Below, piece by piece: positions 31,159 through 53,245 of a DNA stretch of 64,000 nucleotides (its first letter is position 1; every line of letters starts with the position of its first letter). The position numbers and the translations under genes are program-made. The notes under the pieces are model-generated. The model did not search any database. It was given only the letters and a program-made list of their open reading frames with translations, and was not told the origin of the DNA. This DNA is from Escherichia coli (GTDB lineage: Bacteria > Pseudomonadota > Gammaproteobacteria > Enterobacterales > Enterobacteriaceae), in NCBI RefSeq assembly GCF_044324785.1, contig NZ_CP172127.1; one strand, given 5' to 3'.

Positions 31159-31167
31159 AACGCCTCC

Positions 31168-32121: not shown

Positions 32122-32135
32122 GCTCTCTCCTTAAA

Positions 32136-33251: not shown

Positions 33252-33465
33252 TTTGCTGTCCCGCGTTATGTTGTCGGAGACAGTTTGTGAGAAATGCAGG
33301 CCCGGCGATTTTAATCTGCTTTAGAAAACATCAGGGGAGAAGGACAGGGAAAGCAATGCGGTGAACCGGAGGCGGTTATAAAACAGAGGCTGTAAAGCCT
33401 TTATAAAGGTAATACAGCCCCTCATTCGCTGGCAATGATAAATCACCCGCCTGAAGAGAGAAAAC

Positions 33466-33924
33466 TCAGCGACGGGCCGCTGATTCAAGATGGCGGACAA
33501 TGGTATCGAGGATGGGGATTACCACTTCAGGCTGTAGTTCTCCATCCCCCGTCACCGGCAGGAACGGGCGGGCCGGAAGTTCAACAGACTCATTACGCCC
33601 CGTTTTACCCCCGAACTGGTGAATGGCACCGTAAACAACGTTGGTCCCCACAACAGCCTGCCGGTCGTCATGGTCGGTTGATACTGACCCCATCAGACGC
33701 CCGGTATCCTGCAGTGTCTGCCCGTCACGTTCTTCCGCTGCCAGCGAGGGCATCCACCCCGGACGCCCCTCATCAAGAAAGTTAAACTGTGTTTCCGCCA
33801 GCAGGGTTCCGGCGATTTTGCGCATCGCGGGCTCCAGGTCTGTGGCAGCAAGATCCAGCGCACGGAGGCTCCGGCGCAGGGACTTATCGTTAATGGTGAT
33901 ACTGACCAGGTTATCGGAAGCCAT
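33466..33924 (-). CDS. Virion morphogenesis protein, Mu G-like
   Basis: 152 aa after F-like gene. Confidence 0.65.
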   Translation of the reverse strand: MASDNLVSITINDKSLRRSLRALDLAATDLEPAMRKIAGTLLAETQFNFLDEGRPGWMPSLAAEERDGQTLQDTGRLMGSVSTDHDDRQAVVGTNVVYGAIHQFGGKTGRNESVELPARPFLPVTGDGELQPEVVIPILDTIVRHLESAARR

Positions 33925-33926
33925 TG

Positions 33927-37748: not shown

Positions 37749-38293
37749 GATACCACCCCCAGAATTTCCCGGCGCAGTGCCTGTACGGCTTCCGCAGAGA
37801 GCCCGCCCTTACGGGCAATTTTCTCGGCGGCAGCGGCAGCACGTTCAACCCTCTCTCTGACTTCTGCCTGATAGCGCTTGAGGTTGACCGAGGCGCGGGT
37901 CAGTGTGGCGATATTTTTTGAAGCCGTTGCCAGCAGTTTTGCCCGGGCGAAGGGATCGTCGTTTTCCCGCGACTCCTGCAGGCGCATCAGGATATCCGTC
38001 ATTTCGGTCTGGACGAGGGTTATCAGCCCGGCTGAACGGTCATCAGGATCGTCTCCGGCCTCCCGGGCAAGCAGACGCGCTGCCTCGGTTGCCGCCCGCA
38101 CCCGGGCCAGTTGCTGCTCCATTTTGTAGCCAAACCGCTGCAGGGAAGAGCGGGTGATGCTGTACCCCTTTTCCTTCAACAGACTTTCAAGCTCTGCATA
38201 GCCGGTGAAATTATTCTCCGTCAGTGCCCGCTCAAGCCAGCGACGGACCTCCTTCGGCAGAGAATCAATGCTGCTGCGACGTCCCATAATCAC
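37745..38293 (-). CDS. Putative terminase small subunit / DNA-binding packaging protein
   Basis: 182 aa, basic N-terminus, coupled to large terminase. Confidence 0.55.
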   Translation of the reverse strand: MIMGRRSSIDSLPKEVRRWLERALTENNFTGYAELESLLKEKGYSITRSSLQRFGYKMEQQLARVRAATEAARLLAREAGDDPDDRSAGLITLVQTEMTDILMRLQESRENDDPFARAKLLATASKNIATLTRASVNLKRYQAEVRERVERAAAAAEKIARKGGLSAEAVQALRREILGVVS

Positions 38294-38601
38294 TCACTCC
38301 AGTATTTTTCCGGGCGGGCAATACCGGGGCCGCATTCCACGGTGTATTCCACAATATCCACACCAAGGCGACTCAGATCGGCAAACCAGTCACCGGAAGG
38401 CCTCTTCTCCAGTTCCACCATCTTGCGATCTGCCAGGTAATCAAGCTCACGGCGCAGCTCCAGTTGCGTGGTGTCCGGGTAGATGGCGCGGGACACTTCC
38501 AGCAGCAGCGTCTCGCTGGCGGTATAAGGGCGGGTTTTGTTCAGGGCAACCAGCAGACTCCAGCGCAGGGATTCGCGGCGTACCCGGGTAATATCGACCA
38601 T
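38290..38601 (-). CDS. Hypothetical phage protein (103 aa)
   Basis: Coupled ORF between lysis and packaging genes. Confidence 0.45.
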   Translation of the reverse strand: MVDITRVRRESLRWSLLVALNKTRPYTASETLLLEVSRAIYPDTTQLELRRELDYLADRKMVELEKRPSGDWFADLSRLGVDIVEYTVECGPGIARPEKYWSE

Positions 38602-38927
38602 TATTGACCTCCGGTATTGCGGTACTGCTGTACCACTTCCAGTTTGTTGTAGAGCGCGTCCAGTTTGGCCTCGATGACTGTCTGGCCACGGATATAATCC
38701 TCGCGACGGACATAATTCAGCGGTAAATCCGCTTTAAATCGCATAAATTCTTTTTCCAGTTCGCCCCAGTTGGAGGCGGACTGTTGCAGGGCCTGCTCAA
38801 GGGAGGCGAATCGTGCCGCCTGGCGTTCTTCTGTTTTACTGAACAACCATTTGGCGAGCCCTCCCACAAACCCCATGAAGGTGAGCAAAAAACTCACCAC
38901 CGTCCAGAATTCAACCTGCAGTGTCAT
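38601..38927 (-). CDS. Small phage membrane protein (108 aa, one N-terminal TM helix)
   Basis: FWTVVSFLLTFMGFVGGLAKWLF hydrophobic segment. Confidence 0.45.
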   Translation of the reverse strand: MTLQVEFWTVVSFLLTFMGFVGGLAKWLFSKTEERQAARFASLEQALQQSASNWGELEKEFMRFKADLPLNYVRREDYIRGQTVIEAKLDALYNKLEVVQQYRNTGGQ

Positions 38928-39535
38928 TTCTGTAATCCTTCCCGTTCATCCAGTAGCGCGTTTATCTGGTTTCGCCAGCGACGACATTGCCCTGCGTTGT
39001 CGATGATGTTGGCAAGGACGTCAAGCTGGGAGACACCCGAATTGCGTAACCGGGCGTCAGCGGTTTCAGGTTGCCCGGTCGCTGCGCCAGTGCCGGTGCC
39101 AGCGGCGGCAACTGAGTCTGAATGACCGGTGTCGACGGATGCGTTGTCGTATCCGAGTGCGGCGTTGTACTGGCGCACGAAACCGCGAGTAAACACGCAC
39201 TCAATGGGATGGCTCTTACCTTTTTCATCAATCCAGCGCTGTGTGACATCGTTAATTTGCCCCTGTAGTTGTTTGTTCTGGTCCTCCAGTTGAGCAATCT
39301 GCTCAAGATAACCAGCTTCAGCCCGTTGCCCGGCGGCTACCTGCTCCTGATAACGCTCAGACCATGCGCGCAACGCCGCCACCTCACGCCGGGCCTGTTC
39401 TGCCCGGTATCCGTCAAAATCCGCCTGCAGGCGGCTGAGCGCCGCCTGACCGTCAGCGGAGGCCCGGTCGTGGCCTGTGCTGTATCCCAGCCACCAGATC
39501 GCCAGCAGGAAGGTGTTCAGGAGAATGGCCAGCAT
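38924..39535 (-). CDS. i-spanin (Rz-like)
   Basis: Start MLAILLNTFLLAIWWLGY (N-terminal TM) then coiled-coil-rich periplasmic domain; follows the endolysin. Confidence 0.6.
   Translation of the reverse strand: MLAILLNTFLLAIWWLGYSTGHDRASADGQAALSRLQADFDGYRAEQARREVAALRAWSERYQEQVAAGQRAEAGYLEQIAQLEDQNKQLQGQINDVTQRWIDEKGKSHPIECVFTRGFVRQYNAALGYDNASVDTGHSDSVAAAGTGTGAATGQPETADARLRNSGVSQLDVLANIIDNAGQCRRWRNQINALLDEREGLQK
38962..39228 (-). CDS. o-spanin (Rz1-like lipoprotein) embedded in +1 frame within the i-spanin gene
   Basis: MKKVRAIPLSACLLAVSCAS... signal peptide with lipobox-like LAVSC, Pro/Thr-rich body. Confidence 0.55.
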   Translation of the reverse strand: MKKVRAIPLSACLLAVSCASTTPHSDTTTHPSTPVIQTQLPPLAPALAQRPGNLKPLTPGYAIRVSPSLTSLPTSSTTQGNVVAGETR

Positions 39536-39563
39536 AATGACCCGCCACGGCAGCGACCGTAAC

Positions 39564-40301
39564 TTACGTACCCACACAGCTTGCCCCTCCCCATGAGAGA
39601 TAACGCGGGGCCAGCGTGAACAGGATGCGCTGGGGATAATGACGGTTCTCCCGCCAGCTGGCAGTGCTGCGTCCGGCATTCACCGTGGCGACATGACCAA
39701 ACCAGCGGGTGCTGTCCAGCCCTTTTTGTGATGCAAGCCGCCTGTCCCGCTGTACCCAGCCCAGACCACCGTTATAGCCCGACAGTGTCATGGCCATACG
39801 CTCGCAGTCACTGGCGGCGCTGACGCGCTGCCACAGCCAGCGGTCATAGCTGACCAGCGCCCGGATGGCCCATGCCGGATTAAATGGCTCACGGCTGTTA
39901 AGCCCCGGCATCAACTGACTTATCCAGTCGGCGGTGGCGGGCATGAACTGCGCCAGTCCCTGAGCGCCAACCGGCGAGATCGCATCAGGTCGCCAGCCGC
40001 TTTCCTGATGCAGTTGCGCAGCGAAATCAGCCACCGGCGCAGACAGTCCCCATTCAAGCCGGGCATTACGGATCACATCATCGCGATACTGCAGCGCTGC
40101 CTGCGGAGGCTGCGCTGCGCGGGCCTGACTGAAGAAGCCGCCACACCAGAGCAACATTGCGACAAAGAATACCCGTGCCATATGAACCAGAAAGGTCCCG
40201 GCGCGGACTGACAGGCGTTCGGTTCTGATGAAGACCCTAAAGGCTTCGAAAGCCAGTTTCAGGGACATGCATACAATCCAGGTGATCTGCGGCCAGTTCA
40301 T
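39564..40301 (-). CDS. Endolysin, lytic transglycosylase (SLT-domain) type, possibly signal-anchored
   Basis: SLT-like motif ...QLHQESGWRPDAISPVGAQGLAQFMPATADW...; hydrophobic N-terminal segment. Confidence 0.75.
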   Translation of the reverse strand: MNWPQITWIVCMSLKLAFEAFRVFIRTERLSVRAGTFLVHMARVFFVAMLLWCGGFFSQARAAQPPQAALQYRDDVIRNARLEWGLSAPVADFAAQLHQESGWRPDAISPVGAQGLAQFMPATADWISQLMPGLNSREPFNPAWAIRALVSYDRWLWQRVSAASDCERMAMTLSGYNGGLGWVQRDRRLASQKGLDSTRWFGHVATVNAGRSTASWRENRHYPQRILFTLAPRYLSWGGASCVGT

Positions 40302-40303
40302 GA

Positions 40304-40654
40304 TTAAAGCCCCATCGCAACAGCCAGACAGACCGCTGCAACAATCAGTGCACGGCGGATTAACGCAGCAGAAAACACCAGGTGAAGGCCGGTCTGTACC
40401 GGGAAACGCCCATCAGCCATCAGCCTGTCGTCATGTTTCAGGTACTGACCGGGACGGGCTTTGGGGAAGAGCGAACGGTCAAGCCAGTAACCCAGCACTG
40501 CTGCCAGCGTGATGAGTGCCAGCTTGTAGATCACAACAGGCAACTGCTGTGGCGAGACCAGAGCGATGGTGCCCAGCAACAGCACTGAGGTCAGCAGCCA
40601 GCCGCTGAGGCGAGGTTTTTTAACAGGGGGAATGAATTTTTTCAGGTTTTTCAT
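40304..40654 (-). CDS. Putative holin (small membrane protein, 2-3 TM helices)
   Basis: SD AGGAGA before ATG 40654; first gene of the late leftward operon, immediately upstream of the endolysin. Confidence 0.5.
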   Translation of the reverse strand: MKNLKKFIPPVKKPRLSGWLLTSVLLLGTIALVSPQQLPVVIYKLALITLAAVLGYWLDRSLFPKARPGQYLKHDDRLMADGRFPVQTGLHLVFSAALIRRALIVAAVCLAVAMGL

Positions 40655-40784
40655 GTGTGTCTCCTTGTCTGGTGGAGACAGCATCACAAATACAGGGCGC
40701 GAAGGATTTTAAAGCGCGTTAAGAGAGCCGGGGATACGGGATGTGCAGGATAAACGATGAATTATTCACAGAGGAGAATACGAT

Positions 40785-41528
40785 ATGACGCAGACACTGA
40801 ATCCGGTCATCACTGTCACCGTGTCCGGTCCTGTGGGCAGCGGTAAAAGTTACATATTGGCGCGGATAGAGGAAGTGGTGAAACAGGAATTCGGGGGCAG
40901 CGTCATTGTCGATGCTGCAGACGTAGATGATGAGCGGCGTATGAGTGGCGATGATCTGACGACCTGGCAGAAGCCACGGGGTGGCACAGTGATCAGGCTG
41001 GAGGAATACACGGGACAGGGCCTGTTGTCATACGGCGAGGAGCGTATCTGTCGGACGAATGAGCTGCTGGATGTTATATGCCCCACGGGCCGGCAACCCT
41101 GGATACTGCCCGATGCACTGCATGCCACCATTGCGGCACTGATGACAGTTTACGATCAGGAGCTGCTCATGAAGGAGCTACGTAAACTCACCGGTCAGCC
41201 AACAGAATGTTTTTCTGCCCCGAAGTACGGGAAACAGGAACACATCCCGGTGAACACGCTCCCCGTTAACCAGCCTCCCCGGTTCTTCGACGAATACATT
41301 CTGACACCGGAAAATAAAGCTGAGCACGAAGAGATCAAAGCGGCGTTGTTCCGGGAAATCAGGAAGATTGCTGAAATGCAACTGGGGGGCGGGCTGGACA
41401 GAGTGATGGCGAGAGGAGAATGGGAGTCGCTGTTTGAAAGAGTTTCCCCGGAATTACTTCCCCTCGCACTGGCTATCGGGATTATGCAGACAGCGGATAA
41501 ACCTCACTTACGTTCATTAAACACGTAA
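40785..41528 (+). CDS. P-loop NTPase-like protein of unknown function (247 aa)
   Basis: Walker A GPVGSGKS at residues 15-22, rest without recognisable motif; SD GAGGAG 8 nt upstream. Confidence 0.5.
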   Translation: MTQTLNPVITVTVSGPVGSGKSYILARIEEVVKQEFGGSVIVDAADVDDERRMSGDDLTTWQKPRGGTVIRLEEYTGQGLLSYGEERICRTNELLDVICPTGRQPWILPDALHATIAALMTVYDQELLMKELRKLTGQPTECFSAPKYGKQEHIPVNTLPVNQPPRFFDEYILTPENKAEHEEIKAALFREIRKIAEMQLGGGLDRVMARGEWESLFERVSPELLPLALAIGIMQTADKPHLRSLNT

Positions 41529-41908
41529 CGCATAATCCGGGATACGCATTCAGCGATGACTGCATTTTCACCGGTTTTTACTGCATCCAGAAGTGACTCT
41601 TTAAATGGTGCGGGCCGGGGCTGCAGAAGGGTCGGCGTGGCATTGAGCAGACGGAGCGTTTTTTCCGTGAGGACGACATCAGCCGCTCCCACAGCCAGCA
41701 ACTGAGAGTAACGAATATAGCTGTTATCCCGAAGCCATATCAGCGTATCAATAAAATACCGGCACTTTTTCTGGTCGTGATCAACCTGGTCCGGGATATC
41801 GAAAAAACCAGAATAAATCAAAACCTGAGGTGCCGGATGCGTGTTCAGTAATCGGCAGAATATTTTGCCGGTGAGTGCATAAAAATCATCATTTAAGGAG
41901 TGCATCAT
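41504..41908 (-). CDS. Hypothetical protein (134 aa)
   Basis: ORF whose ATG (41906-41908) overlaps the divergent ATG of the next gene (41907). Confidence 0.4.
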   Translation of the reverse strand: MMHSLNDDFYALTGKIFCRLLNTHPAPQVLIYSGFFDIPDQVDHDQKKCRYFIDTLIWLRDNSYIRYSQLLAVGAADVVLTEKTLRLLNATPTLLQPRPAPFKESLLDAVKTGENAVIAECVSRIMRYVFNERK

Positions 41909-42122
41909 GAATCCCCGATTAACGTTAACAGAACATCAGCGCCGTGCTGAAGCAGTGAACAATGTTCTGGAAGATATTATCCGGTTACATCGCGGAGAAC
42001 TGAGTGTCTGTCGTGCCGCTTTTCATTTTCAGGGAATACAAAAGCAGTTTGATACTTCTGTTTTTGCAGAAGGTATTACTTATGCCCTGGACCGGATAAG
42101 GTCAGAAAATCGCCCCGGATAA
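41907..42122 (+). CDS. Hypothetical small protein (71 aa)
   Basis: SD AAGGAG 6 nt upstream of ATG. Confidence 0.4.
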   Translation: MNPRLTLTEHQRRAEAVNNVLEDIIRLHRGELSVCRAAFHFQGIQKQFDTSVFAEGITYALDRIRSENRPG

Positions 42123-42313
42123 TCCCTAAACCACATTAACAGAAATCCCACTATCCCTGCCGCATCATGAAAGAACGACCAGCCCGGTGCTTCGGACCCA
42201 CCGGGCTGGCCATCGTCCCACAGAAGTGGCTGTGAGCCGACCGAGGTTCAGTCAGTCTCGCGAGACCAGACTAGCCTGCCATATTTTTAATAATTGTAAA
42301 AGGCTTACAGATT

Positions 42314-43078
42314 ATGAAAATGAAGACATTACCCATCGTTCCATGGATTGGTGGCAAACGTCGCCTGGCAAAACACATCCTGCCGCTGTTTCCGGCGCAT
42401 GAATGTTATGTGGAGCCGTTTTGTGGGGCAGCAGCGCTCTATTTTCTTAAGACACCCGGCAAGATCGAAGTCATCAATGATATCAACGGTGAACTGGTGA
42501 ATCTGTACCGGGTGGTAAAGCATCACCTGGAAGAATTTGTCCGCCAGTTCAAATGGGCGCTGGTCAGCCGTCAGATCTACAAATGGCTGCAGATCACCCC
42601 GGAAGAAACACTGACGGATATCCAGCGTGCGGCACGGTTCTACTACCTTCAGAAGCAGGCGTTTGGCGGCAAGGTGGCAGAGCACAGCTTCGGTACCTCC
42701 ACCACATCCCCGCCACGCTTCAACCTGCTGCGTATTGAAGAAGAACTGTCAGCAGCACACCTGCGGCTTTCCAGAACAGTCATAGAACACATGGACTGGC
42801 AACAGTGCATTGAGCGTTATGATCGTCCGCACACACTGTTCTACTGCGACCCACCGTACCTGGGTACGGAAGGCTATGGTGTGGATTTTCCTGAAGGGAA
42901 CTACTCGCGGCTGGCAGAGCTGGCCCGGTGCATCAGAGGAAAAATGATAATTTCGGTGAACGATATCCCACAGATGCGCGAGGTGTTCACTGGACTGAAC
43001 ATACAGACAGTGAACATCAACTACAGTCTGGCGGGGAAATCTACGCCGCGCCGTGAACTGGTAATCTGCAACTTCTGA
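42314..43078 (+). CDS. DNA N6-adenine methyltransferase (Dam-like)
   Basis: N-terminal WIGGKRRLAKHILPLFP and catalytic DPPY motif (YCDPPYLG). Confidence 0.85.
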   Translation: MKMKTLPIVPWIGGKRRLAKHILPLFPAHECYVEPFCGAAALYFLKTPGKIEVINDINGELVNLYRVVKHHLEEFVRQFKWALVSRQIYKWLQITPEETLTDIQRAARFYYLQKQAFGGKVAEHSFGTSTTSPPRFNLLRIEEELSAAHLRLSRTVIEHMDWQQCIERYDRPHTLFYCDPPYLGTEGYGVDFPEGNYSRLAELARCIRGKMIISVNDIPQMREVFTGLNIQTVNINYSLAGKSTPRRELVICNF

Positions 43079-43085
43079 AACAAAA

Positions 43086-43108
43086 CCGGAAAGCACAATG
43101 CTTTCCGG
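43086..43108. terminator. Bidirectional hairpin between dam-like gene and repressor gene
   Basis: Perfect 9-bp stem CCGGAAAGC/GCTTTCCGG with 5-nt loop; T-rich run on the minus-strand side. Confidence 0.45.
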
Positions 43109-43194
43109 TAAACCAAACAACTTCCACTATGTCACTGGCGATGTTTTCTGAAAGCATCCAGATCAACCACCTGTCCTTTGTGTCCAGGTCAAAA

Positions 43195-43533
43195 TCAGCC
43201 TGCGAGTTTGCTTGGTTTGGGTTGAATGAAGACTTTGCCGACCTCAAGAATTGCCCTCCGTTGTTCGGGGCTCATTTCGTCGAATGCATCCATTAACTCT
43301 TTCTTTTCTTGTGACACATAAGGTGCAACAACAGGCTGACTCCGCACCCCAGTAACTACATACAAAATATCTACACCGATTTCTGATAGTGCAGATAACT
43401 GCACTGCAGTAGGAGAAGTGCGATCTTTTTCCCAATCAATGAAAGTTCTCTTTGCCACACCTATAGCATCAGCCAACCCTTGCTGTGTAAGAGATAGACG
43501 CTCTCTTTCTTCTTTAATACGTAACCCGATCAT
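43195..43533 (-). CDS. Phage repressor, HTH XRE/cI-type
   Basis: MIGLRIKEERERLSLTQQGLADAIGVAKRTFIDWEKDRTSP is a canonical XRE HTH; divergent from the early operon. Confidence 0.7.
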   Translation of the reverse strand: MIGLRIKEERERLSLTQQGLADAIGVAKRTFIDWEKDRTSPTAVQLSALSEIGVDILYVVTGVRSQPVVAPYVSQEKKELMDAFDEMSPEQRRAILEVGKVFIQPKPSKLAG

Positions 43534-43557
43534 GTGAGTTTTTCTGCACTCTTTAAG

Positions 43558-43586
43558 TTGACTGGTGAGGTAATCTGCACCATAAT
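43558..43586 (+). promoter_or_regulatory. Putative sigma70 early promoter with overlapping repressor operators
   Basis: -35 TTGACT (43558-43563), 17-bp spacer, -10 CATAAT (43581-43586); direct repeat TCTGCAC at 43543-43549 and 43574-43580. Confidence 0.4.
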
Positions 43587-43633
43587 CTATCACACATAAG
43601 GCAAACATCATTGCATCAACAAAGGAGACAACG

Positions 43634-43822
43634 ATGACTGCAGAACAAGTCAAAGCTCTCTTCCGCCAGCGCGGGATCACTTTCACCCGCTGGGCAGAAG
43701 AAAACGGCTACAACCGCAATGAGGTATACCGCGTTCTCAATGGGCAGACCAAAGCCCGTTACGGTAAATCCCATGAAATCGCCGTGAAGTTGGGGCTGAA
43801 ATCAACAGCTCAGGCAGCCTGA
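43634..43822 (+). CDS. Small DNA-binding protein (Ner-like position)
   Basis: 62 aa basic protein, first gene of the rightward early operon, divergent from repressor. Confidence 0.4.
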   Translation: MTAEQVKALFRQRGITFTRWAEENGYNRNEVYRVLNGQTKARYGKSHEIAVKLGLKSTAQAA

Positions 43823-43868
43823 AGATTTTGAGTCTTTGTAAAAGGTTATCACATATCGCAAAAGAGGT

Positions 43869-44183
43869 ATGCAGATGAGTAAGACGAATGTTTCAAGCTC
43901 CGGCAGTCGCATCCTCCGGGTACTCAAAGCGCTGCGCGGTCATGCCCTGAACGGTATTTCCAACGGTGAACTGGCGGCAGCACTGCACGAGTCACCGGCA
44001 AACATCAACCGGGCACTCAACACCCTCATTGAAGAAGGGTTGGCCCTGAAACTGGAAAACGGGCGTTTCGCGCCGGGCATCCAGTTACTGCAGATCGCTA
44101 TGGCCCACAGTAACGAGATGGCACGTGCACAGGATCGCATTAACGAAATCAACCAACGTGTCATTTCAGGTAGTCGTTTGTAA
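43869..44183 (+). CDS. Putative winged-helix DNA-binding regulator (104 aa)
   Basis: ILRVLKALRGHALNGISNGELAAALHESPANINRALNTLIEEGL resembles a wHTH. Confidence 0.4.
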   Translation: MQMSKTNVSSSGSRILRVLKALRGHALNGISNGELAAALHESPANINRALNTLIEEGLALKLENGRFAPGIQLLQIAMAHSNEMARAQDRINEINQRVISGSRL

Positions 44184-44193
44184 GGAGTAATAA

Positions 44194-45105
44194 ATGGGAC
44201 GCACCAAATCACCGATTAACACTGAACTGAACGCCGAGGTACCGCTGTCGGATGATCTCAATGTCAGTCTGAACGCCATGACACAGCATCGTATGGAGAT
44301 CATGCAGCAGTTTGGCGATGGTCAGCCCTATGAGCGTGATCGCATAGTTCATGAGGCTCGGTTTTATATGGCACAGAGCGCTGAGGCCATGCTGGAAGCA
44401 GGTAAACGACTTATTATTCTCAAAGAAAATGAACCTCACGGGGACTTTGTTGGAATTGTAGAAGAACAACTTGGTCTGCATGTGCGCGCAGCACAACGAA
44501 TGATGAAAGCATCTTTGAAATACCTTTCACCAAAACTAGAGCCAAAAGCGACAACGTTGTCGCTTTTAGGTAAGGCAAAATTATTTGAACTTGTTGCTGA
44601 AGATGACGACGACCTTGCTGAACTGGCCGACGGTGGCACAGTTGCCGGACTGACGCTTGACGATGTTGATCGCATGTCAGTACGTGAATTGCGTCAGGCC
44701 CTGCGCGAAGCGCGCGAAACCAACGCAGCACAACAGCGCGTACTCGCCGACAAAAATGAAAAAATAGACTCACTCTCCACCAGACTGGAGAAGAAATCCC
44801 GTATTCAGCCACCTGAGCCTGATGAAGAGGTGAAGAAACTGCGGGCAGAAGTGACCGCGTTAGCGGTTGAGGCGGAATCTGCCATCGCCGTTCGACTGTC
44901 CAGCGCTTTTGAGACGCTGTGCGCATATTGTGCTGAAAACATGATTGATACCCCCAGAGACTTCATGGCAGGCCTGGTCTGTCAACTGGAAAGCACAGCG
45001 CGTAGCCTGCGCTCCACATTTGACCTGCCGGACGAGCCAACAGGCAATGCAGCGCCTTCATGGCTGACTGAGCCGACGCCACAGATTAACGGGCTGGAGG
45101 CATAA
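44194..45105 (+). CDS. Hypothetical early protein (303 aa), possibly DUF3102-like
   Basis: Acidic, coiled-coil-rich; located just upstream of transposase A. Confidence 0.4.
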   Translation: MGRTKSPINTELNAEVPLSDDLNVSLNAMTQHRMEIMQQFGDGQPYERDRIVHEARFYMAQSAEAMLEAGKRLIILKENEPHGDFVGIVEEQLGLHVRAAQRMMKASLKYLSPKLEPKATTLSLLGKAKLFELVAEDDDDLAELADGGTVAGLTLDDVDRMSVRELRQALREARETNAAQQRVLADKNEKIDSLSTRLEKKSRIQPPEPDEEVKKLRAEVTALAVEAESAIAVRLSSAFETLCAYCAENMIDTPRDFMAGLVCQLESTARSLRSTFDLPDEPTGNAAPSWLTEPTPQINGLEA

Positions 45106-45108
45106 CCA

Positions 45109-46878
45109 ATGAATGCTGCCCTGACTGAACGACTGGTTTATGTCGCCCGCGCGGCACGTGACGCGGGGCATGGTAAACGCGGCGCAGTATACGACGCTGC
45201 CTGTGCTGAACTTGGCATGTCCCGCGCCACTCTGCTGCGCAGGCTGAAGGAGGTATCTGTGACTGATAAACGCAAAAAACGCGCCGATGCCGGGCGCAGC
45301 GCCCTGACCCGCGACGAAGCCGCGCTGATATCTGCCACACTGCGTGAGGCCACCCGCAAGAACGGTAAGCGTCTCTATTCCATCGCGGATGCAGTGGAAA
45401 CCCTGCGGGCTAACGGCTTTATATCCGCAGGCAGAACAGATGAAACCACCGGTGAGTTTTTCCCGTTGTCCGAAGATGCCATCAGCCGAGCCCTGCGTAA
45501 CTATGGCCTGCACCCGGAACAACTGGATGCCCCTGCGCCGCATACCGAAGTGGCCAGTCTGCATCCCAATCATGTCTGGCAGATTGACGCCTCACTCTGC
45601 ACGCTTTACTACCTGAGCAATGGACATAAAGGGCTGCAGGTGATGGACAGCGCGAAGTTCTACAAGAACAAGCCCGCTAACCTTGCCCGTATCGCCAGTG
45701 ACCGCGTGTGGAGTTACGAGATTACCGACCATGCCAGCGGCTGGATTTACGTTGAGTATGTGACGGGCGCGGAATCAGGTGAGAACCTGTGTTCTGTGCT
45801 TATCAACGCCATGCAGGAGCGTGGCGGCGCAGACGTGCTGCACGGTGTGCCGAAAATACTCTATCTCGACCCCGGCTCGGCAAACACCGCGGGTATGACG
45901 AAAAACATGTGCCGCTCACTGGGCATCGACCTGATAGCGCACAAGCCGCATAACGCCCGCGCCACCGGACAGGTGGAAAAGGCGCGGGACATTATCGAAC
46001 GCAAGCTGGAGCCGGGTCTGAAGTTCCGGCCGGTTCACAGTCTGGAAGAACTCAACGCGCTGGCCGCGAAATGGCGCAGCCACTTTAACGCCACGGCTGT
46101 TCACAGCCGCCACGGTAAAACCCGCACGGATATCTGGCTGAAGATTACTGCTGAGCAGCTGAAAAAAGCGCCTTCCGTTGAGGTATGTCGTGAACTGGCT
46201 GTGGCGGCACCAGAACTCCGCAAAGTCACGCCAAAACTTCGTGTCTCGTTCCGGGGCACTGAATTTGACGTATCAACGGTACCGGGCGTACTGGTTGGTG
46301 AAAAACTGATGATTACCCGTAACCCGTGGCGCAGCGATGTGGCACAGGTGGTTCTGACCGGTGAGGACGGCCACGAGACGTTCTTCCTGGTCGAAGAGGT
46401 CAGAAAGAACGAGTTTGGCTTTGCTGAAGGCGCGGCGGTATTTGGCGAAAGTTACAAAGCCCTGCCGGAAACCCCGGCGCAGATGGCGGCAAAAGAAACC
46501 GAAGCGCTGGTCACCGGTACAGACAACGCCGCAGATGCAGCTGCCGCACGCAAGGCGAAGGCGCTGCCGTTCGGCGGGCGGCTTGACCCGTATAAACATA
46601 TCGACGACACCACACTTCCGGCCTATATGCCGAAGCGTGGTCAGGCCTCTGACGTACGCGGGCCGCGCACTGAACAACGTCCCATGACTTATGTGGAGGC
46701 CGCGAAAGCCCTGCGCGATAAGTTCAGCGCCAACGGCTTTACCTGGACGCTGGAACATTACCGCCAGTTAACGGCACAGTATCCGGACGGCGTACCGGAA
46801 GCCGCACTGGATGAAGTCATGGCCACGCTGACCACGCCGGCCCGCAGCAGCGTTATCAGTATTGTTAACGGCAACTGA
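45109..46878 (+). CDS. Mu-type DDE transposase (A protein)
   Basis: 589 aa with integrase-core region (HVWQIDASL...) followed by the B-like ATPase gene. Confidence 0.8.
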   Translation: MNAALTERLVYVARAARDAGHGKRGAVYDAACAELGMSRATLLRRLKEVSVTDKRKKRADAGRSALTRDEAALISATLREATRKNGKRLYSIADAVETLRANGFISAGRTDETTGEFFPLSEDAISRALRNYGLHPEQLDAPAPHTEVASLHPNHVWQIDASLCTLYYLSNGHKGLQVMDSAKFYKNKPANLARIASDRVWSYEITDHASGWIYVEYVTGAESGENLCSVLINAMQERGGADVLHGVPKILYLDPGSANTAGMTKNMCRSLGIDLIAHKPHNARATGQVEKARDIIERKLEPGLKFRPVHSLEELNALAAKWRSHFNATAVHSRHGKTRTDIWLKITAEQLKKAPSVEVCRELAVAAPELRKVTPKLRVSFRGTEFDVSTVPGVLVGEKLMITRNPWRSDVAQVVLTGEDGHETFFLVEEVRKNEFGFAEGAAVFGESYKALPETPAQMAAKETEALVTGTDNAADAAAARKAKALPFGGRLDPYKHIDDTTLPAYMPKRGQASDVRGPRTEQRPMTYVEAAKALRDKFSANGFTWTLEHYRQLTAQYPDGVPEAALDEVMATLTTPARSSVISIVNGN

Positions 46879-46888
46879 GGAGGGAAAC

Positions 46889-48055
46889 ATGCTGGTACTG
46901 AAGCAGCAACTGAAAGAAGCCCGTATTCCACAGGCGGTGGTGGCGAGAGCTGTCGATGTTTCTGAGGCCACGCTGGCCCAGATTGTGAATCATAACGCGT
47001 GGCCCCGCACCAGCCCCGGAGAAGTGCGCCGGCGTCTTGCGTCCTGGCTGGAAAGTCAGGGGATTGATACAACGAAGAGTTTTGATGCTGTACAGGGCGC
47101 GGCCACGCCCCGTACAGCGGGTACCACAGATAAAACGAGCCTCAGTGAGGAAGAGAATATGTTACTCAAAAAACAGGTGTTATTTCCAGCAACCAAAAAA
47201 GCGTTTGGTCTTTTCCGTGACCCGTTCGCCGACGAAGCCATGCAGGGTTCTGATGATGTGTTCACCACCCCGGATATTCGCTACGTGCGTGAGGCGTTGT
47301 ACCAGACAGCCCGTCATGGTGGGTTTATGGCCGTCATCGGTGAGTCCGGTGCGGGTAAATCCACGCTGCGCCGCGACCTGACTGAACGTATCAACCGCGA
47401 GAATGCGCCGGTAATTGTTATCGAGCCATACATCATCGCTATGGAAGACAACGATGTGAAAGGGAAAACCCTGAAGGCAGCAGCGATTGCCGAAGCCATT
47501 ATCAGTACCATCGCACCACTGGAAAGCATCAGACGCAGTCAGGACGCCCGCTTTCGCCAGTTGCATCGCGTCCTGAAAGACAGCAGCCAGGCGGGGTTCA
47601 GCCACGTTCTGGTGATTGAGGAGGCCCACAGTCTGCCCATTCCGACACTGAAACACCTCAAACGCTTTTTTGAGCTGGAGTCCGGTTTCAAAAAACTGCT
47701 GTCCATCGTGCTGATTGGCCAGCCGGAACTGGCGACAAAACTGTCTGAACGCAATATGGAAGTCCGTGAAGTCGTTCAGCGCTGTGAGGTGGTCGAACTT
47801 CTGCCTCTGGACAATAACCTTGAAGAGTTTCTGACGTTCAAACTGCAACGGGCCGGTAAACAACTGACGGACATTATGGACGCCAGCGCAGTGGATGCCA
47901 TACGTGCCCGCCTGAGCAATCCGGGAAGTCATCGTAAAAATATGGTCAGCCTGCTGTATCCGCTGGCCGTCAGTAACCTGGTAATAGCCGCCATGAATCT
48001 GGCCGCTGAAATCGGGGTTCCACAGGTCAACGCTGACGTTGTCAAAGGGGTTTAA
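46889..48055 (+). CDS. Transposition ATPase (MuB-like AAA+ target DNA activator)
   Basis: Walker A VIGESGAGKST, Walker B-like HVLVIEEAH; SD GGAGGG before ATG. Confidence 0.8.
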   Translation: MLVLKQQLKEARIPQAVVARAVDVSEATLAQIVNHNAWPRTSPGEVRRRLASWLESQGIDTTKSFDAVQGAATPRTAGTTDKTSLSEEENMLLKKQVLFPATKKAFGLFRDPFADEAMQGSDDVFTTPDIRYVREALYQTARHGGFMAVIGESGAGKSTLRRDLTERINRENAPVIVIEPYIIAMEDNDVKGKTLKAAAIAEAIISTIAPLESIRRSQDARFRQLHRVLKDSSQAGFSHVLVIEEAHSLPIPTLKHLKRFFELESGFKKLLSIVLIGQPELATKLSERNMEVREVVQRCEVVELLPLDNNLEEFLTFKLQRAGKQLTDIMDASAVDAIRARLSNPGSHRKNMVSLLYPLAVSNLVIAAMNLAAEIGVPQVNADVVKGV

Positions 48056-48057
48056 TA

Positions 48058-48327
48058 ATGAAATCCACCACAGGTATCAACCAGCAAATCAGCAAAGTGC
48101 AGTCAGCCATTATGGCGCTTAAGGCGACGAACACGGATGTACAAAGCATCACCATCAGGGGTAACAAACCTGTCATCCGCGTTTCCCGGAGTGCGCATTG
48201 CATGCGCATGCTTGAGCAGGGAAAGGCCTGTTATCTGTATACCGGTCATGACCACAGGGGACATTTCCGTCAGGGCGTTTTCGAACTGCACGGCTGTCGC
48301 GTCGTGTGGCCGGAATCTTTGTGGTAA
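48058..48327 (+). CDS. Hypothetical early protein (89 aa)
   Basis: Coupled to B stop. Confidence 0.4.
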   Translation: MKSTTGINQQISKVQSAIMALKATNTDVQSITIRGNKPVIRVSRSAHCMRMLEQGKACYLYTGHDHRGHFRQGVFELHGCRVVWPESLW

Positions 48328-48354
48328 TCAGCACAACAGGAGGAGTCATAAAAT

Positions 48355-48885
48355 ATGGCAAAAAGTACAAAAGGGGCAAAACGTATCAAAGCCGCAGCAG
48401 CACTCTGGGTGCCGGGGACACGCGAAGAGGTCATTGAGGGAATCAGACTGCTTGGTGACGCGCAACGTGAACTGGTCAGGGCTGAAACAGAAATGAATGA
48501 CACCATTGGCGACATCACCGCACGTTATGCCCCGCTCACCGAGAGCCTGAAAAAACGCATGGCCGAACTGCAGTCCGGTATTCAGACATGGTGTGAGGCA
48601 CACCGTGATGAACTGACCGGCAACGGGAAGGTGAAGTTCGCTAACCTCACCACCGGCGAGGTGCAGTGGCGAAACCGTCCGCCGTCAGTCAGTATCCGTG
48701 GGGCGGATAATGTTATTGAATTACTGAGACGTCTGGGGCTTGAGCGCTTTATCCGTGTAAAGGAGGAAATAAATAAAGACGCCATCCTGAATGAAAAGGA
48801 CGCCGTGAAAAATATTCCCGGTATTACCATAAAAAGTGATATTGAGGATTTTTCAATAATTCCTTTTGAGCAGAATGTGCAGTAA
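48355..48885 (+). CDS. gam: Host-nuclease inhibitor Gam
   Basis: 176 aa closely matching Mu Gam along its length (AKRIKAAAALWVP...IGDAQRE...ETEMND...WCEAHRDELT...IRVKEEINKDAIL...DFSIIPFEQ). Confidence 0.85.
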   Translation: MAKSTKGAKRIKAAAALWVPGTREEVIEGIRLLGDAQRELVRAETEMNDTIGDITARYAPLTESLKKRMAELQSGIQTWCEAHRDELTGNGKVKFANLTTGEVQWRNRPPSVSIRGADNVIELLRRLGLERFIRVKEEINKDAILNEKDAVKNIPGITIKSDIEDFSIIPFEQNVQ

Positions 48886-48981
48886 AAACAGCATATAAGC
48901 TATTTAAAACAGCCTTTTCTTTTTTATTCCGGCATCAGCGCCGTGGGCTTCTGCACGCCGGAAACAGAGGAGAATTAAATC

Positions 48982-49176
48982 ATGATATTTAAATGTATTC
49001 AGTGCGAGAGGGATATAACAGCCCTGCGTTTTCACAGCGCCATCGCCGTGATGTCCGGTAAGTACCACGTACCTGCAGTACGCGTCACCCTGGTCTGTCC
49101 GTACTGCAGTCAGCATTTTTCGGCAGACGTGCCCGTCATGGAATTCTCCCGCCCTGACAGGGAGGACTCGCAATGA
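48982..49176 (+). CDS. Small zinc-ribbon protein (64 aa)
   Basis: Two CxxC pairs (CIQC ... CPYC). Confidence 0.4.
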   Translation: MIFKCIQCERDITALRFHSAIAVMSGKYHVPAVRVTLVCPYCSQHFSADVPVMEFSRPDREDSQ

Positions 49177-49445
49177 TTACCCCACAGGAAGCACGACAGC
49201 GCACCCGAACCCTTGTTGAACACTATGTCAACGAGTGTGAATGCCGCGACCTCACCGATGTGAAGCACGTCCTGACGGCGCTAATCAGCATGACCGCTCA
49301 GGCCATTGTGGCGACCAACGGAAAGGCGGCTGCCCTGCAGGTACTGGTGAACACACTCACCCACACGGCAGAGCACGATGTGCCGTACCGGATGGAAACC
49401 ACTGCAGAAGGCGGCCTGAACATCACCGTCGACCGGAAACACTGA
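49173..49445 (+). CDS. Hypothetical early protein (90 aa)
   Basis: Coupled ORF. Confidence 0.4.
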   Translation: MITPQEARQRTRTLVEHYVNECECRDLTDVKHVLTALISMTAQAIVATNGKAAALQVLVNTLTHTAEHDVPYRMETTAEGGLNITVDRKH

Positions 49446-49454
49446 GGGCGCGGC

Positions 49455-49760
49455 ATGACACGGAACACCGAACTCACCCGCACCGCCCTCTACCGTCTGG
49501 CCCTGCAGCGTTTCGGGCCGGACGCACAGGCCCTGAAACTGACAGAAGAGGCCGCTGAACTGGCGGCCAGTGCCGCCCGCAACCTGAACGGACAGGGCAG
49601 CGAAAGTGACCTCGCGGCAGAGCTGGCAGACGTGGAAATCATGACAGAGCAGCTGCGCCTTCAGGGAATGGACCGGCTGATTGACTTCCACAAACAGAAA
49701 AAACTGGAACGCCTTGCCGCACGGCTGGGCGTCATGTACACCGGAGATACTGAACAATGA
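49455..49760 (+). CDS. Small MazG-like nucleotide pyrophosphohydrolase-type protein (tentative)
   Basis: 101 aa helical protein with EEAAELAA...AELADVEIM pattern reminiscent of MazG-type NTP-PPase. Confidence 0.4.
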   Translation: MTRNTELTRTALYRLALQRFGPDAQALKLTEEAAELAASAARNLNGQGSESDLAAELADVEIMTEQLRLQGMDRLIDFHKQKKLERLAARLGVMYTGDTEQ

Positions 49761-50440
49761 CAGACCAGGATAAACACATTGAGAAACTGAAAAAGTTGCT
49801 GGCGCTGGCCGCATCCGGCAACCCTCACGAGGCCGCTCTGGCACTGCGCCGTGCCCGTAAACTGATGGATGTTCACGGCATCACACATTCCGACATCGCC
49901 ATGAGTGATATTGATGAAACCATCAGTCACTACTGGCCGACAGGCAGCCTCCGTCCACCGCGCTACATGCTGGGCCTGATGAACATCATCCGCGAGGCAT
50001 TTGGTGTTAACTCCATCATTCACCCCGGCACATATCCGGGTGTGGGGTTCTACGGCAACCGGGAACGGGCTGCACTGGCTGCGTACACCTGGGAAGTGCT
50101 GGCCCGCCAGCTGAAAAAGGCGCGTCAGCAATATATCAGCGCACAGAACAAAAGAATAAAAACTGCCACCCGTACCAGCCGTGGTGACCAGTTTGCTGAA
50201 GGCTGGGTGCTGGCCGTTATCAGTGAAATACAGTCCTTCGCCCTGACCGATGACGAACGTGAACTGATGCAGCAGTGGCTGGAACATAAATACCCGCAGA
50301 CGCAAACCACCAGGGCGCGTAAACCGGGAAGAAGCCGCAATGGCGACGCCTCGCGCTATGCGGGGTTTCTTGAAGGGCAGAACGTCAGACTGCACCGCCC
50401 GGTCAGTGGGCAGGAACAACAGAAACTGGAGGCCAGATGA
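49757..50440 (+). CDS. Hypothetical early protein (227 aa), DUF2786-like N-terminus
   Basis: N-terminal IEKLKKLLALAASGNPHEAALALRRARKLM pattern. Confidence 0.45.
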   Translation: MTDQDKHIEKLKKLLALAASGNPHEAALALRRARKLMDVHGITHSDIAMSDIDETISHYWPTGSLRPPRYMLGLMNIIREAFGVNSIIHPGTYPGVGFYGNRERAALAAYTWEVLARQLKKARQQYISAQNKRIKTATRTSRGDQFAEGWVLAVISEIQSFALTDDERELMQQWLEHKYPQTQTTRARKPGRSRNGDASRYAGFLEGQNVRLHRPVSGQEQQKLEAR

Positions 50441-50667
50441 TTACGCTATCAGGTAAAAGCCGGAAATTAAAAGCCTGCCGAATATCTGCCAGATACCTTT
50501 TTGCCCGCGCCTTTTTTAAGAACGTCAGGCCGGGGATCACAATTGGTGTTATTGCCGGACGCGAACAGGTTGAAAAATACATGTCAGGTGCATGGTGGAA
50601 TAACGACCCTGTCATTGCTGCCCGTAATATTCATATCAGTTGGGGGGATATTCAGAATGACGGCTGA
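50437..50667 (+). CDS. Hypothetical small protein (76 aa)
   Basis: Coupled ORF. Confidence 0.3.
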   Translation: MITLSGKSRKLKACRISARYLFARAFFKNVRPGITIGVIAGREQVEKYMSGAWWNNDPVIAARNIHISWGDIQNDG

Positions 50668-50872
50668 ATCTGTTGTATGTGCCCTGTTCTGGTATTGTTT
50701 TGTCGGTTGGTGTACTGCTGAACTGCACCGCCGTTCAGGGTTTTATTCACGTTACAGTGGTGCTGGCTACTGGATTAGCTGGTCGGTGATGTTCCTGTGC
50801 TGGCCTGTGGCGCTTCCTTTATATGTCGATTATATCGGTGGCGCAGGTAAAAGGAGCAACGATGATGACTAA
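50664..50872 (+). CDS. Small membrane protein (2 TM)
   Basis: VVCALFWYCFVGWC and WSVMFLCWPVALPLYV hydrophobic segments. Confidence 0.35.
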
Positions 50873-51314
50873 ACAACGTCTTATCCAGCTCATTCATATT
50901 GCCCGTAATGAACTGGGTATGGATGAAGACACCTACCGCCAGATGTTACAGGGGCTGACCGGTAAAGCCTCAACCAAAGGAATGGATACCACACAACTAA
51001 ACTGCGTGCTGGAATCCATGAAAAGGAAAGGCTTTCGCGTTAAGCCTGCCGGAAAAGCCAGCTCCGGTTTACCGCTGGATAACCATCCGCAGTCCAGGAA
51101 AATCCGTGCGCTATGGCTTGAAATGGCTGCTGCCGGCATTGTTCGTGACCGTTCAGAAAATGCATTAGCGCGGTGGATCAAGCGGGAAACGGGCATCAGC
51201 GCCCTGCGCTGGCTCAGTACTGAACAGGCAAGCAGTGTTATTGAGAAACTGAAGAAGTGGCAGCGCAGAGCTGCGGGAGTCAAACATGAGCGACCTGAAT
51301 CAGTTTCGAAGTAA
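50862..51314 (+). CDS. gemA: GemA-like regulatory protein (Mu gp16 family)
   Basis: SD AGGAG before ATG; position immediately before Mor; size ~150 aa. Confidence 0.6.
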   Translation: MMTKQRLIQLIHIARNELGMDEDTYRQMLQGLTGKASTKGMDTTQLNCVLESMKRKGFRVKPAGKASSGLPLDNHPQSRKIRALWLEMAAAGIVRDRSENALARWIKRETGISALRWLSTEQASSVIEKLKKWQRRAAGVKHERPESVSK

Positions 51315-51684
51315 AGGGCCGGAACTCCTGGTGGAGCTGGCACAGCATACCTCTGAGACCGTTCGCGAGATTATTGATATTGAGCCCGCAATTGCCGACC
51401 AGATTGGTCAGGCCGTCGCGAACCGAATGATGCAGGTCTGGGGCGGGCAAAACGTTTATTTCCCGATGGGCATGGTATGGAAGGTCAGTCAGCGCGACCG
51501 GGAAATCTTCAGGGAGTTTAACGGACGCAACCACCACGAACTGGCCCGCAAGTTTGGTGTTTCGCTTCAGTGGGTCTACAGCGTGGTTAAGCGGGTCAGA
51601 AAAGAAGAACTGGATCGGATGCAGGGCAGGTTGTTTGATGAAGATCTGCCAGAGGAGACGAAAGACGTTAACAAATCCAGATAA
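51286..51684 (+). CDS. mor: Mor-like middle-operon transcriptional activator
   Basis: C-terminal ...VYFPMG...REIFREFNGRNHHELARKFGVSLQWVYSVVKR matches the Mor/C family HTH. Confidence 0.7.
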   Translation: MSDLNQFRSKGPELLVELAQHTSETVREIIDIEPAIADQIGQAVANRMMQVWGGQNVYFPMGMVWKVSQRDREIFREFNGRNHHELARKFGVSLQWVYSVVKRVRKEELDRMQGRLFDEDLPEETKDVNKSR

Positions 51685-51730
51685 TTCCTGCTTGTTAAAG
51701 TCCTTTCAAAAATCTCCTTATTGTATAAAA

Positions 51731-51760
51731 GCACGGTAGACCCCTTACCGTGCTTTTTTT
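51731..51760 (+). terminator. Rho-independent terminator after mor
   Basis: Perfect 8-bp stem GCACGGTA/TACCGTGC, 7-nt loop, followed by TTTTTTT (51754-51760). Confidence 0.65.
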
Positions 51761-51798
51761 ATGCTCTCTCTTTAGTATTCAGGATGCAGGGAGAAAAT

Positions 51799-52431
51799 AT
51801 GTTTGACGTTTCGTTGTTAAATCTGCCATGGGCAACACTGGTGACCCTGACCAGTGGCTATATTGGGTATTTTATTGCGAATGTGGGACTGAAGGATCAC
51901 CACAAGCCCATTGAGGTGACTTTTTCTTCGCTGATTTTTGGCCTGACAGCAATGATGGCTTACCAGGCTGTTATGTGGGCAGGTCTGAATGCCTGGCTGG
52001 CAACACCACCAGCACTTCTGTGTGCCGTTACATGCGGTGCGTGGTGGCGCAGGTACGGTCGCAAATGGATGTACAGATTACTGTGGAATAATGATATTTC
52101 ATGGTCTGACGATACCAGCTCAGCATGGCAGGCAATGTTTGATCAAACAGGCTTCAGCGTTACCGAGGTCAGAGTGATTCTTCGCGATGGTTCCGGTATG
52201 ATGTCACGGCTGCCAGGGAACTTTGAAGAGTGGCCTAACGGTCCGTTTACCCTGGGGAATAAAGGCGATATGGTTCTTTACGTCACGCACAGCAGCCCTT
52301 CAGGCAGTAACGAATGGGAAGAGTATAAAGGCGTGGTTGATAAGTACTGGGGAGCTCTGGCAACCTATATTCCAGCAGATCAGATTGCCAGAGTGGAGAT
52401 CAGGCGCGTTCGTGCAACGAACGATGAATGA
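51799..52431 (+). CDS. Membrane-anchored protein (211 aa), candidate moron / superinfection-exclusion factor
   Basis: Own SD (GGGAGA) after the mor terminator; N-terminal TM helices (WATLVTLTSGYIGYFIANVGL, FSSLIFGLTAMMAYQAVMWAGL) plus soluble C-terminal domain; last gene before the prophage right end. Confidence 0.55.
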   Translation: MFDVSLLNLPWATLVTLTSGYIGYFIANVGLKDHHKPIEVTFSSLIFGLTAMMAYQAVMWAGLNAWLATPPALLCAVTCGAWWRRYGRKWMYRLLWNNDISWSDDTSSAWQAMFDQTGFSVTEVRVILRDGSGMMSRLPGNFEEWPNGPFTLGNKGDMVLYVTHSSPSGSNEWEEYKGVVDKYWGALATYIPADQIARVEIRRVRATNDE

Positions 52432-52744
52432 TGTTTATTTTTTCCCTGGGGCAGGGGCTGCCGGCATAGTGGTTTTATTGGCAGAGGAAGACGATTCTCC
52501 TTTTCTACCGGAATCGCGCTCGAACGTCACGATGTGCTTGCTTTTGGGCTTTTCTGAGTAATCCAGGCTATCATGCTTATTGTTTTGAGTAGTCATTGGA
52601 ATCATCCTTTTTGTTGCGGGTCATGTTTCAGCAAACTCGATTCTAAGTTGCCAGGAAGGATGATTTCAATGCCCGACTTATCTATCGTATAGCGGAAAAG
52701 AATTTCAGTTCTGTTCACCAGAACCCATGTTAACCCACTCCAAT

Positions 52745-52792
52745 TCGTTATTTATCTCACGGATCCCCCTTCATTTATCTCATGTCTGATCA
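52745..52792. repeat. Prophage right terminus with two putative transposase-binding motifs (inverted relative to left end)
   Basis: Reverse complement reads TGATCAGACATGAGATAAATGAAGGGGGATCCGTGAGATAAATAACG; motifs at + 52772-52779 and 52749-52756. Confidence 0.6.
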
Positions 52793-53245
52793 GTTCCCGC
52801 CCTGCGGCAGGCTAAACCACGCCATGCCGTCGTGGTGCATCCCGGCCTGCGCCGCCTGTTCTTCCGTGGTGTTGCTACCGTCGGTTTTAAAAACCGGCAG
52901 ATTTCCGGCAATCCCGGTGGCGTCGCCCCATTTGTAGAAGGGCTTCGCGATGTATCCTTCCGGCACGATAACGGTATCTTCCGTGGAAACCGGCAGGCTG
53001 GTGAAACCGAGCGTCGTCGCTTTGCCGAGGTTACCGCTTGCTTTGGAGACCACTTTCGCCAGCGCGTTTTCCTGTTTCAGCAGAAATGGGAACGCTGCCG
53101 CGGCACCGGCGACCGTGCCTGCCTGTAACAGACGGCGGCGTGACAAATAGACTTCCGCCACCTGCGAAAACGCGCGGTTATCGCTCGGGTTACTGATTTC
53201 TTCACTATGCTCACGTTTGAATAAAGTTTTTAACGGTCTGCCCAT
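52793..53245 (-). pseudogene. phoX: PhoX-family secreted phosphatase gene, 5' part (Tat signal), separated from its 3' part by the prophage
   Basis: Twin-arginine motif SRRRLLQAGTVAGAAAAFPF; frame terminated by TGA supplied by the prophage terminal TGATCA. Confidence 0.65.

Follow-up and report, generated by a model that had tools for sequence, protein, structure and literature searches.

A BcepMu/B3-type prophage end in Escherichia coli phoX: a TG/CA terminus and two tandem 23-bp units in the register of Tn552

BcepMu-like prophages have been known in enterobacteria since 2004. Mu-like and B3-like phages alike have conserved TG-CA ends (PMC8705779). The transposases of BcepMu and B3 have been placed in the Tn552-IS1604 group and not with MuA (PMC2771037, PMC2628397, PMC3091646, PMC5977238), and the relationship to the Tn552 transposase itself has been called distant (PMC2771037, PMC8705779). 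In the BcepMu/B3 group the early genes form a cluster on the opposite strand (PMC2771037, PMC2628397, PMC3091646), and B3 is described with an inverted early operon (PMC5977238). B3 generates a 6-bp target duplication, and a 6-bp repeat has been called 'a footprint … of a B3/Tn552 family transposase' (PMC8705779). The TG-CA ends, the 6-bp duplication and the phage family are already published, and the prophage end described here is real but ordinary. The increments are base-exact ends, a 6-bp duplication in every one of ten insertions for the E. coli lineage, and an explicit identity of core positions with Tn552.

The stretch analysed, hereafter the window, is 64,000 nucleotides (64 kb) of E. 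coli DNA. We give a probability of about 90% to the reading that an apparently complete prophage of BcepMu/B3 type (14452-52792) transposed into phoX and has its transposase-proximal end at 52747-52792, the mechanism set out below included. Every sequence-level character of the B3/BcepMu group was found in the element. Among the closest described phages is BcepMu (Burkholderia phage, Bcepmuvirus), which has myovirus-type late genes, an early arm on the opposite strand and a transposase 68% identical to that of the window. Its ends, which begin with TGA, are each built of two tandem 23-bp units whose G(C/A)GATA(A/T)(A/T)T cores lie at the offsets seen in the window, and its outer units have the same end-specific flavour, with TGAGA in the proximal and GCGCGA in the distal one. 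BcepMu differs in its host, the window prophage being from E. coli, and similarity at the DNA level is limited to short stretches. The accessory genes differ as well: the window prophage has an invertible tail-fibre segment of Gin type and a Dam-like methylase, and in BcepMu the distal end is occupied by an acyltransferase.

B3 and the B3-like phages (Beetrevirus; PM105, JBD25 and others) have transposases 50-56% identical to that of the window, the value for B3 itself being 56%. They share the TG…CA ends, each with its pair of 23-bp units in register with those of the window, and the phased GGGA array at the Mor/transposase-proximal end, and B3 shares the 6-bp target duplication (PMC8705779) and the inverted early operon (PMC5977238). 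Unlike the window prophage, these are siphoviruses of Pseudomonas, with more degenerate cores (GAAATAC, GAAATTT). Phage Mu is a further comparison. Its attL and attR (MuA sites L1-L3 and R1-R3) resemble the window in TG…CA and in multiple sites of roughly 22 bp, inverted between the ends, and Mu also has an AAA+ target-delivery partner, replicative transposition, random insertion and a short duplication. However, Mu has three unevenly spaced sites per end and a 5-bp duplication, all of its genes except the repressor read in one direction, unlike those of the window prophage, and MuA has no detectable sequence similarity to the window transposase.

The end plan is found again outside phages in Tn552, the S. 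aureus beta-lactamase transposon, which was located in S. aureus pMW2 (NC_005011) at 4872-11417. There one end reads TGTCACTTTACTCGATATATGAG/AATGACTTTACCTAATAAATGAG, a near-identical inverted copy lies at the other end, and the duplication is TAATTGT, 7 bp long; Tn552 duplicates 6-7 bp, and the window prophage 6 bp. Like the window, Tn552 has TG…CA termini, an rve transposase with an adjacent AAA ATPase, and two direct 23-bp repeats per end, which according to Rowland et al. (EMBO J 1995) are reportedly exactly what its transposase footprints. Its cores, GATATAT at 14-20 and AATAAAT at 37-43, stand at the offsets of GATAAAT in the window. Unlike the window prophage, Tn552 is a 6.5-kb plasmid or chromosomal transposon with a resolvase and not a phage, its transposase is only distantly related, it has inverted repeats that reach about 110 bp and resemble each other at the two ends, and it has no GGG array. 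A frameshift breaks the Tn552 transposase gene of pMW2 (5772-7180) into two fragments, about 260 and 278 aa long, and the gene table of the plasmid does not list it. The 'Tn552-II' of PMC12486829, which works by a different, Tn554-like mechanism, was left out of the comparison. The end plan of Tn552 (TG, two 23-bp sites, 6-7-bp stagger) is common to the whole branch of Mu-like phages considered here. The features of the locus are collected in Table 1.

Table 1. Coordinates of the prophage, its ends and the disrupted host gene within the window.
Feature	Positions	Strand	Length or sequence	Basis or remark
Apparently complete transposable prophage, BcepMu/B3 type	14452..52792		38,341 bp	Host-homology break, empty-site match and gene content
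Target-site duplication, left copy	14446..14451		GTTCCC	
Target-site duplication, right copy	52793..52798		GTTCCC	Host phoX sequence
phoX, C-terminal part	12919..14451	-		Disrupted host gene
phoX, N-terminal part (PhoX-family phosphatase)	52793..53245	-		Disrupted host gene
Left (transposase-distal) end, outer 23-bp unit	14452..14474	+	TGATGCGCCGCGCGATAAATGCA	
Left (transposase-distal) end, inner 23-bp unit	14475..14497	+	CTCTATCTTGTGCGATAAATGGC	
DDE (rve) transposase, Tn552-related BcepMu/B3 TnpA type	45109..46878	+	589 aa	PHROG 310, E = 9e-147
AAA+ transposition ATPase, 'DNA transposition protein'	46889..48055	+		PHROG 296, E = 1.5e-93
Subterminal GGG(A/T)-type motif array	52713..52746	-	10-bp phasing	Candidate accessory or packaging (pac) site
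Right end, inner 23-bp unit	52747..52769	-	GGGGGATCCGTGAGATAAATAAC	Kept in the ends of 17 distinct relatives
Right end, outer 23-bp unit	52770..52792	-	TGATCAGACATGAGATAAATGAA	In register with outer units of BcepMu, B3, PM105, phiSHP3 and Tn552

The boundaries can be read directly from the host flanks. The plus strand around 52746-52801 reads …CGTTATTTATCTCACGGATCCCCCTTCATTTATCTCATGTCTGATCA/GTTCCCGCC…, and the left end, with the prophage after the slash, reads …GAGCTGTTCCC/TGATGCGCCGCGCGATAAATGCACTCTATCTTGTGCGATAAATGGC…. The prophage begins with TGATG… and finishes with …TGATCA, and the GTTCCC copies abut both termini directly. In E. coli genomes whose PhoX-family phosphatase gene is intact, homology to the window starts exactly at 52793, at 100% identity. 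Joining 14451 to 52799, with one GTTCCC kept, gives an uninterrupted PhoX ORF of 663 aa with a Tat-type signal, and 400 nt of this reconstructed empty site are present, uninterrupted and 100% identical, in at least 94 E. coli genomes. Because of the break in host homology, the ORF of the joined flanks and the match to the empty site, the insert is delimited as in Table 1 and its target duplication is GTTCCC. Position 52792 is the exact right-hand end of the prophage. The original prediction had called a prophage right end with a CA terminus here, followed by a duplicated GTTCCC, and the break in homology and the empty site bear it out to the base. Transposition of the prophage into phoX inactivated this gene in the analysed strain, and none of the E. 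coli genomes carrying the prophage end sequences has it in phoX.

Both junctions of the same prophage were retrieved from nine other genomes, which together with the window make ten independent insertions. The nine other sites are yjjI, flgA, irp1, phnP, gcl, an amino-acid permease gene, a DUF905 gene, the terminase gene of another prophage and an intergenic site. All ten insertions have direct repeats of 6 bp, as the duplication predicted in the window would have it, and all ten repeats are different (GTTCCC, GGAATG, ACGCAC, TTAAGC, ATTAGC, CCTGAC, CCGCAC, CAGTCC, GCGAGG and ACTTGC) and abut identical TGATG…/…TGATCA termini. A 5-bp duplication with one coincidental base was also considered, the empty site of the window (GCTGTTCCCGCC) being compatible with 5 or 6 bp, and was rejected on the nine further insertions, which give 6 bp. 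The loci are unrelated and the repeats differ; therefore the prophage moves by transposition and not by site-specific integration.

The ends are spread over many loci in the species. Among 5,426 complete E. coli genomes, the 300 bp of the right end (52493-52792) occur in 253, in 117 of them at full length, and the 300 bp of the left end (14452-14751) in 596, nearly all with at least 99% identity. The left end is far more widespread than the right-end variant of the window, which argues that the tip of the early arm is mosaic among otherwise similar prophages. For the right end, identity is only 80-90% in 140 of the matching records, and plasmids account for 105 of the matching places. The exact right-end variant is absent from the phage records of the collection searched, the nearest being 78% identical over 69 bp, so the activity of this variant rests on its many genomic insertion sites.

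Within the right end, the reverse complement of 52746-52792 (47 nt) reads TGATCAGACATGAGATAAATGAAGGGGGATCCGTGAGATAAATAACG. GATAAAT occupies inward positions 14-20 and 37-43, which are 52773-52779 and 52750-52756 on the minus strand, and the left end has it at the same inward positions, inverted relative to the right end (14465-14471 and 14488-14494, plus strand). The inverted motifs at matching offsets had been part of the original prediction and stand at both termini; the string quoted there was itself accurate, being 47 nt long, and starts at 52746 rather than at 52745 as given, a trivial offset. Positions 12-20 of each unit form a G(A/C)GATAAAT core. The first two bases of the right outer unit are the TG/CA terminus (CA at 52791-52792, plus strand), the predicted point of cleavage and joining. 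Across both strands of the window GATAAAT occurs 17 times, with 4 of the 17 at the matching end offsets, and the chance of both offsets at the right end, given the left end, is about (17/128,000)^2, or 2e-8.

A 23-nt weight matrix was built from non-E. coli phages only (BcepMu, B3, PM105 and phiSHP3). Of about 128,000 window positions it ranks 52747-52769 (minus) first and 14452-14474 (plus) second, and the outer right and inner left units are absent from the best 15 matches listed for this matrix of distant phages, which is low in information. Motif scan and family matrix gave no convincing third site at either end and no convincing internal enhancer-like copies. Internal matches to motif and matrix at 24.6-24.9 kb were rejected as part of the tape-measure tandem repeat.

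The same plan is found across the relatives. The ends of BcepMu, B3, PM105 and phiSHP3 consist of TG and two tandem 23-bp units in the register of the window, and the core in these phage ends is G(C/A)GA(T/A)A(A/T)(A/T)T at unit positions 12-20. The proximal terminus is retained in 28 of 80 viral-contig relatives, which yield 17 distinct sequences; in these, positions 1-46 hold 1.09 bits per position, against 0.54 for positions 47-90. The other 52 of the 80 have no end match above the score cut-off, probably owing to contigs trimmed before the terminus. Such prophages are routinely mis-bounded, as these 52 illustrate, and the base-pair boundaries of a common E. coli transposable prophage, now fixed, are of use for annotation.

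The outer units of the two ends are not alike. At the transposase-proximal end (52770-52792) the outer unit contains …(A/G)TGAGA(T/A)A, with ATGAGA in the window, and at the transposase-distal end (14452-14474) it contains …GCGCGA(T/A)A. This difference is kept in the E. coli prophage, BcepMu, B3, PM105 and phiSHP3; in phiSHP3 the outer-unit pattern holds and the inner units depart from it. Such conservation suggests that the two ends are functionally non-equivalent. Further in at the left end, at 14521-14531 (inward about 70-80), lies an A-rich (G/C)AA(A)AGAA(A/T)TT block, found at the same distance in five of five phage distal ends.

Just inside the right end there is a small inward-reading ORF (52438-52599, minus strand, 53 aa), which is hypothetical in identical prophages. 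It has a sigma-70-like promoter at 52669-52640 on the minus strand, with 10 of 12 matches, and a terminator-like hairpin at 52707-52725 lies between the ORF and the terminus, in the orientation to stop host-derived transcription. The right-end variant of the window also has two GATC (Dam) sites, one at 52788-52791 overlapping the cleavage site in the terminal TGATCA and one at 52761-52764 in the GGATCC of the inner unit, and the prophage encodes a Dam-like DNA adenine methylase at 42314-43078. With such a promoter and small ORF beside them, and with GATC sites in a phage that encodes its own Dam-like methylase, the GATAAAT repeats might be regulatory, as operators or promoter elements for the inward ORF or as GATC-linked targets. 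We regard this as improbable, though it fares best among the alternatives. The opposite end, which has no such ORF, carries the repeats in an identical register, and they stand also in Tn552, a plasmid transposon with unrelated cargo. Additionally, the promoter-like site lies some 100 bp deeper in the prophage, and both GATC sites are missing from the commoner variant end, TGATTAGAC….

The gene content, taken from the PGAP annotation of an identical prophage in strain G749 and from PHROG searches, agrees with a BcepMu/B3-type element. The late (structural) arm lies at roughly 16.8-41.9 kb on the minus strand and includes holin, transglycosylase, DUF3486 small terminase, portal (DUF935), head morphogenesis, sheath, tube, tape measure, baseplate and tail-fibre genes, with an invertible segment and an invertase of Gin type. 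The early arm (43869-52431) runs the other way, on the plus strand toward 52792. It encodes regulators, a 303-aa uncharacterised protein, the transposase and its AAA+ partner, Gam, a gp16-family (GemA-like) protein and Mor. The AAA+ ATPase is the analogue of MuB and of Tn552 p271; its mechanical ORF starts at 46862, the PGAP start in identical prophages is 46889, and it is annotated there as 'ExeA family protein'.

The transposase is 98% identical to that of Escherichia phage PhiKM and 42% identical to that of Stenotrophomonas phiSHP3, and its identities to the BcepMu and B3 enzymes given above extend along the full length. Its only Pfam domain is rve, the MuA Pfam domains being absent from the 589 residues. 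A PDB sequence search returned no MuA chain at E <= 1 and only marginal matches to retroviral-integrase cores, and NCBIfam gave only IS481 (best) and IS21, both below the cut-off. In tblastn against plasmids, IS481-family relatives appeared at about 26% identity, with no Staphylococcus among the matches listed. Direct comparison with Tn552 gave weak similarity. Pairwise blastp against the frameshifted Tn552 transposase of pMW2 gave a marginal 30% identity over 46 aa (E = 7e-4), and when a profile of 13 phage transposases was run against 133 ORFs, the sole match above noise was the C-terminal fragment of that frameshifted transposase (17 bits over about 170 residues). The 'transposase A' of the original prediction is, as it supposed, the transposase of a transposable prophage, and it is of the BcepMu/B3 type, which the literature relates to Tn552, rather than MuA-like.

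A classical Mu-type end (attR/attL), with a MuA-family transposase, three sites per end and 5-bp duplications, would account for the TG…CA termini and for a 38-kb prophage with Mor, Gam, a GemA-like protein, head genes like those of Mu and an invertible tail-fibre segment of Gin type. It is nonetheless very improbable: the duplication is 6 bp in all ten insertions, motif and matrix scans detect no more than two units at each end, the early arm has the opposite orientation to that of Mu, and the transposase, which lacks MuA domains and a PDB match to MuA at the threshold used, has BcepMu and B3 as its relatives. The duplication of 6 rather than 5 bp, and the two rather than three sites per end, follow from the BcepMu/B3 type of the transposase.

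Another reading would make GTTCCC the attachment-site core of a site-specific integrase and the flanking repeats its arm-type sites, as a short direct repeat does flank the prophage and a serine recombinase gene does adjoin its left end; with ten insertions at ten different loci and in ten different 6-bp repeats, with a Gin/Hin-type invertase beside the invertible tail-fibre segment as the sole recombinase, and with no tyrosine integrase in the prophage annotation, it has next to no likelihood. Equally hard to credit is a chance resemblance in A+T-rich end sequence. In its favour, GAGATAAAT, allowing up to 1 mismatch, shows no enrichment over the window as a whole (16 observed, 10.4 expected), but exact cores stand at identical offsets of both independently defined termini, at the odds given above, in a register kept from Enterobacteria to Burkholderia, Pseudomonas, Stenotrophomonas and the Tn552 of Staphylococcus.

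For a BcepMu/B3-type prophage end, the steps of insertion can be proposed on the model of Tn552 and Mu. The transposase, a DDE enzyme probably distantly related to that of Tn552 and not a MuA, would bind the four 23-bp units and pair the two ends with the help of the adjacent AAA+ ATPase. This ATPase would be expected to deliver target DNA, like MuB or Tn552 p271 in target capture. The transposase would then nick after the terminal CA and expose 3'-OH groups, which would be joined to target phosphates staggered by 6 bp, and gap repair or replication would leave the GTTCCC duplication on both sides. The same explanation by stagger and gap repair has been given for the 6-bp duplication of B3 (PMC8705779). 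That the transposase binds the units, as the original prediction had proposed for their motifs, is inferred from the analogy with Tn552 and Mu, and so are the chemistry of the reaction and what the ATPase contributes.

The part of this end that may be new is an array of GGG(A/T) motifs with 10-bp phasing, placed just inside the two transposase units at inward positions of about 46-80 (about 46, 56, 66 and 76). The copy in the window is degenerate, with GGGT at inward positions 57 and 67. The GG(G/A)A/GGGT phasing is kept in 13 diverse relatives, from E. coli prophages to BcepMu, B3, PM105 and phiSHP3, and the bases between the motifs are not conserved. Pairs at lag 10 and lag 20 number 28, against 1.1 ± 1.1 in shuffles, none of 2000 shuffles reaching 28, a count to be read with the descent that relates these sequences. 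The phased array is absent from the distal end and from Tn552. In virions of PM105 the host DNA is 0.6-2 kb, long and of headful type, at the end opposite the array (PMC4777764). Because this long host DNA is at the opposite end, packaging should start at the array end, and because headful packaging should start there, the array is a candidate pac. On sequence grounds we tentatively propose that the array is an undescribed end-specific site on one helix face, for which pac would be the most plausible role, a proposal that we ourselves hold as less likely than not.

At the opposite end of the prophage, a tail-fibre region resembling the invertible G segment of Mu lies at 14530-17302, and the Gin/Hin-type invertase (PHROG 125) adjoins the left end. 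The region contains inverted repeats of 231-274 nt, with 15164-15439 pairing with 16560-16790 and 17029-17302. In-frame tandem repeats are also present in structural genes, at 17469-18485 and 24233-25028; those of the tail-fibre gene have 168- and 300-bp units, and the tape-measure gene has three units of 261 bp.
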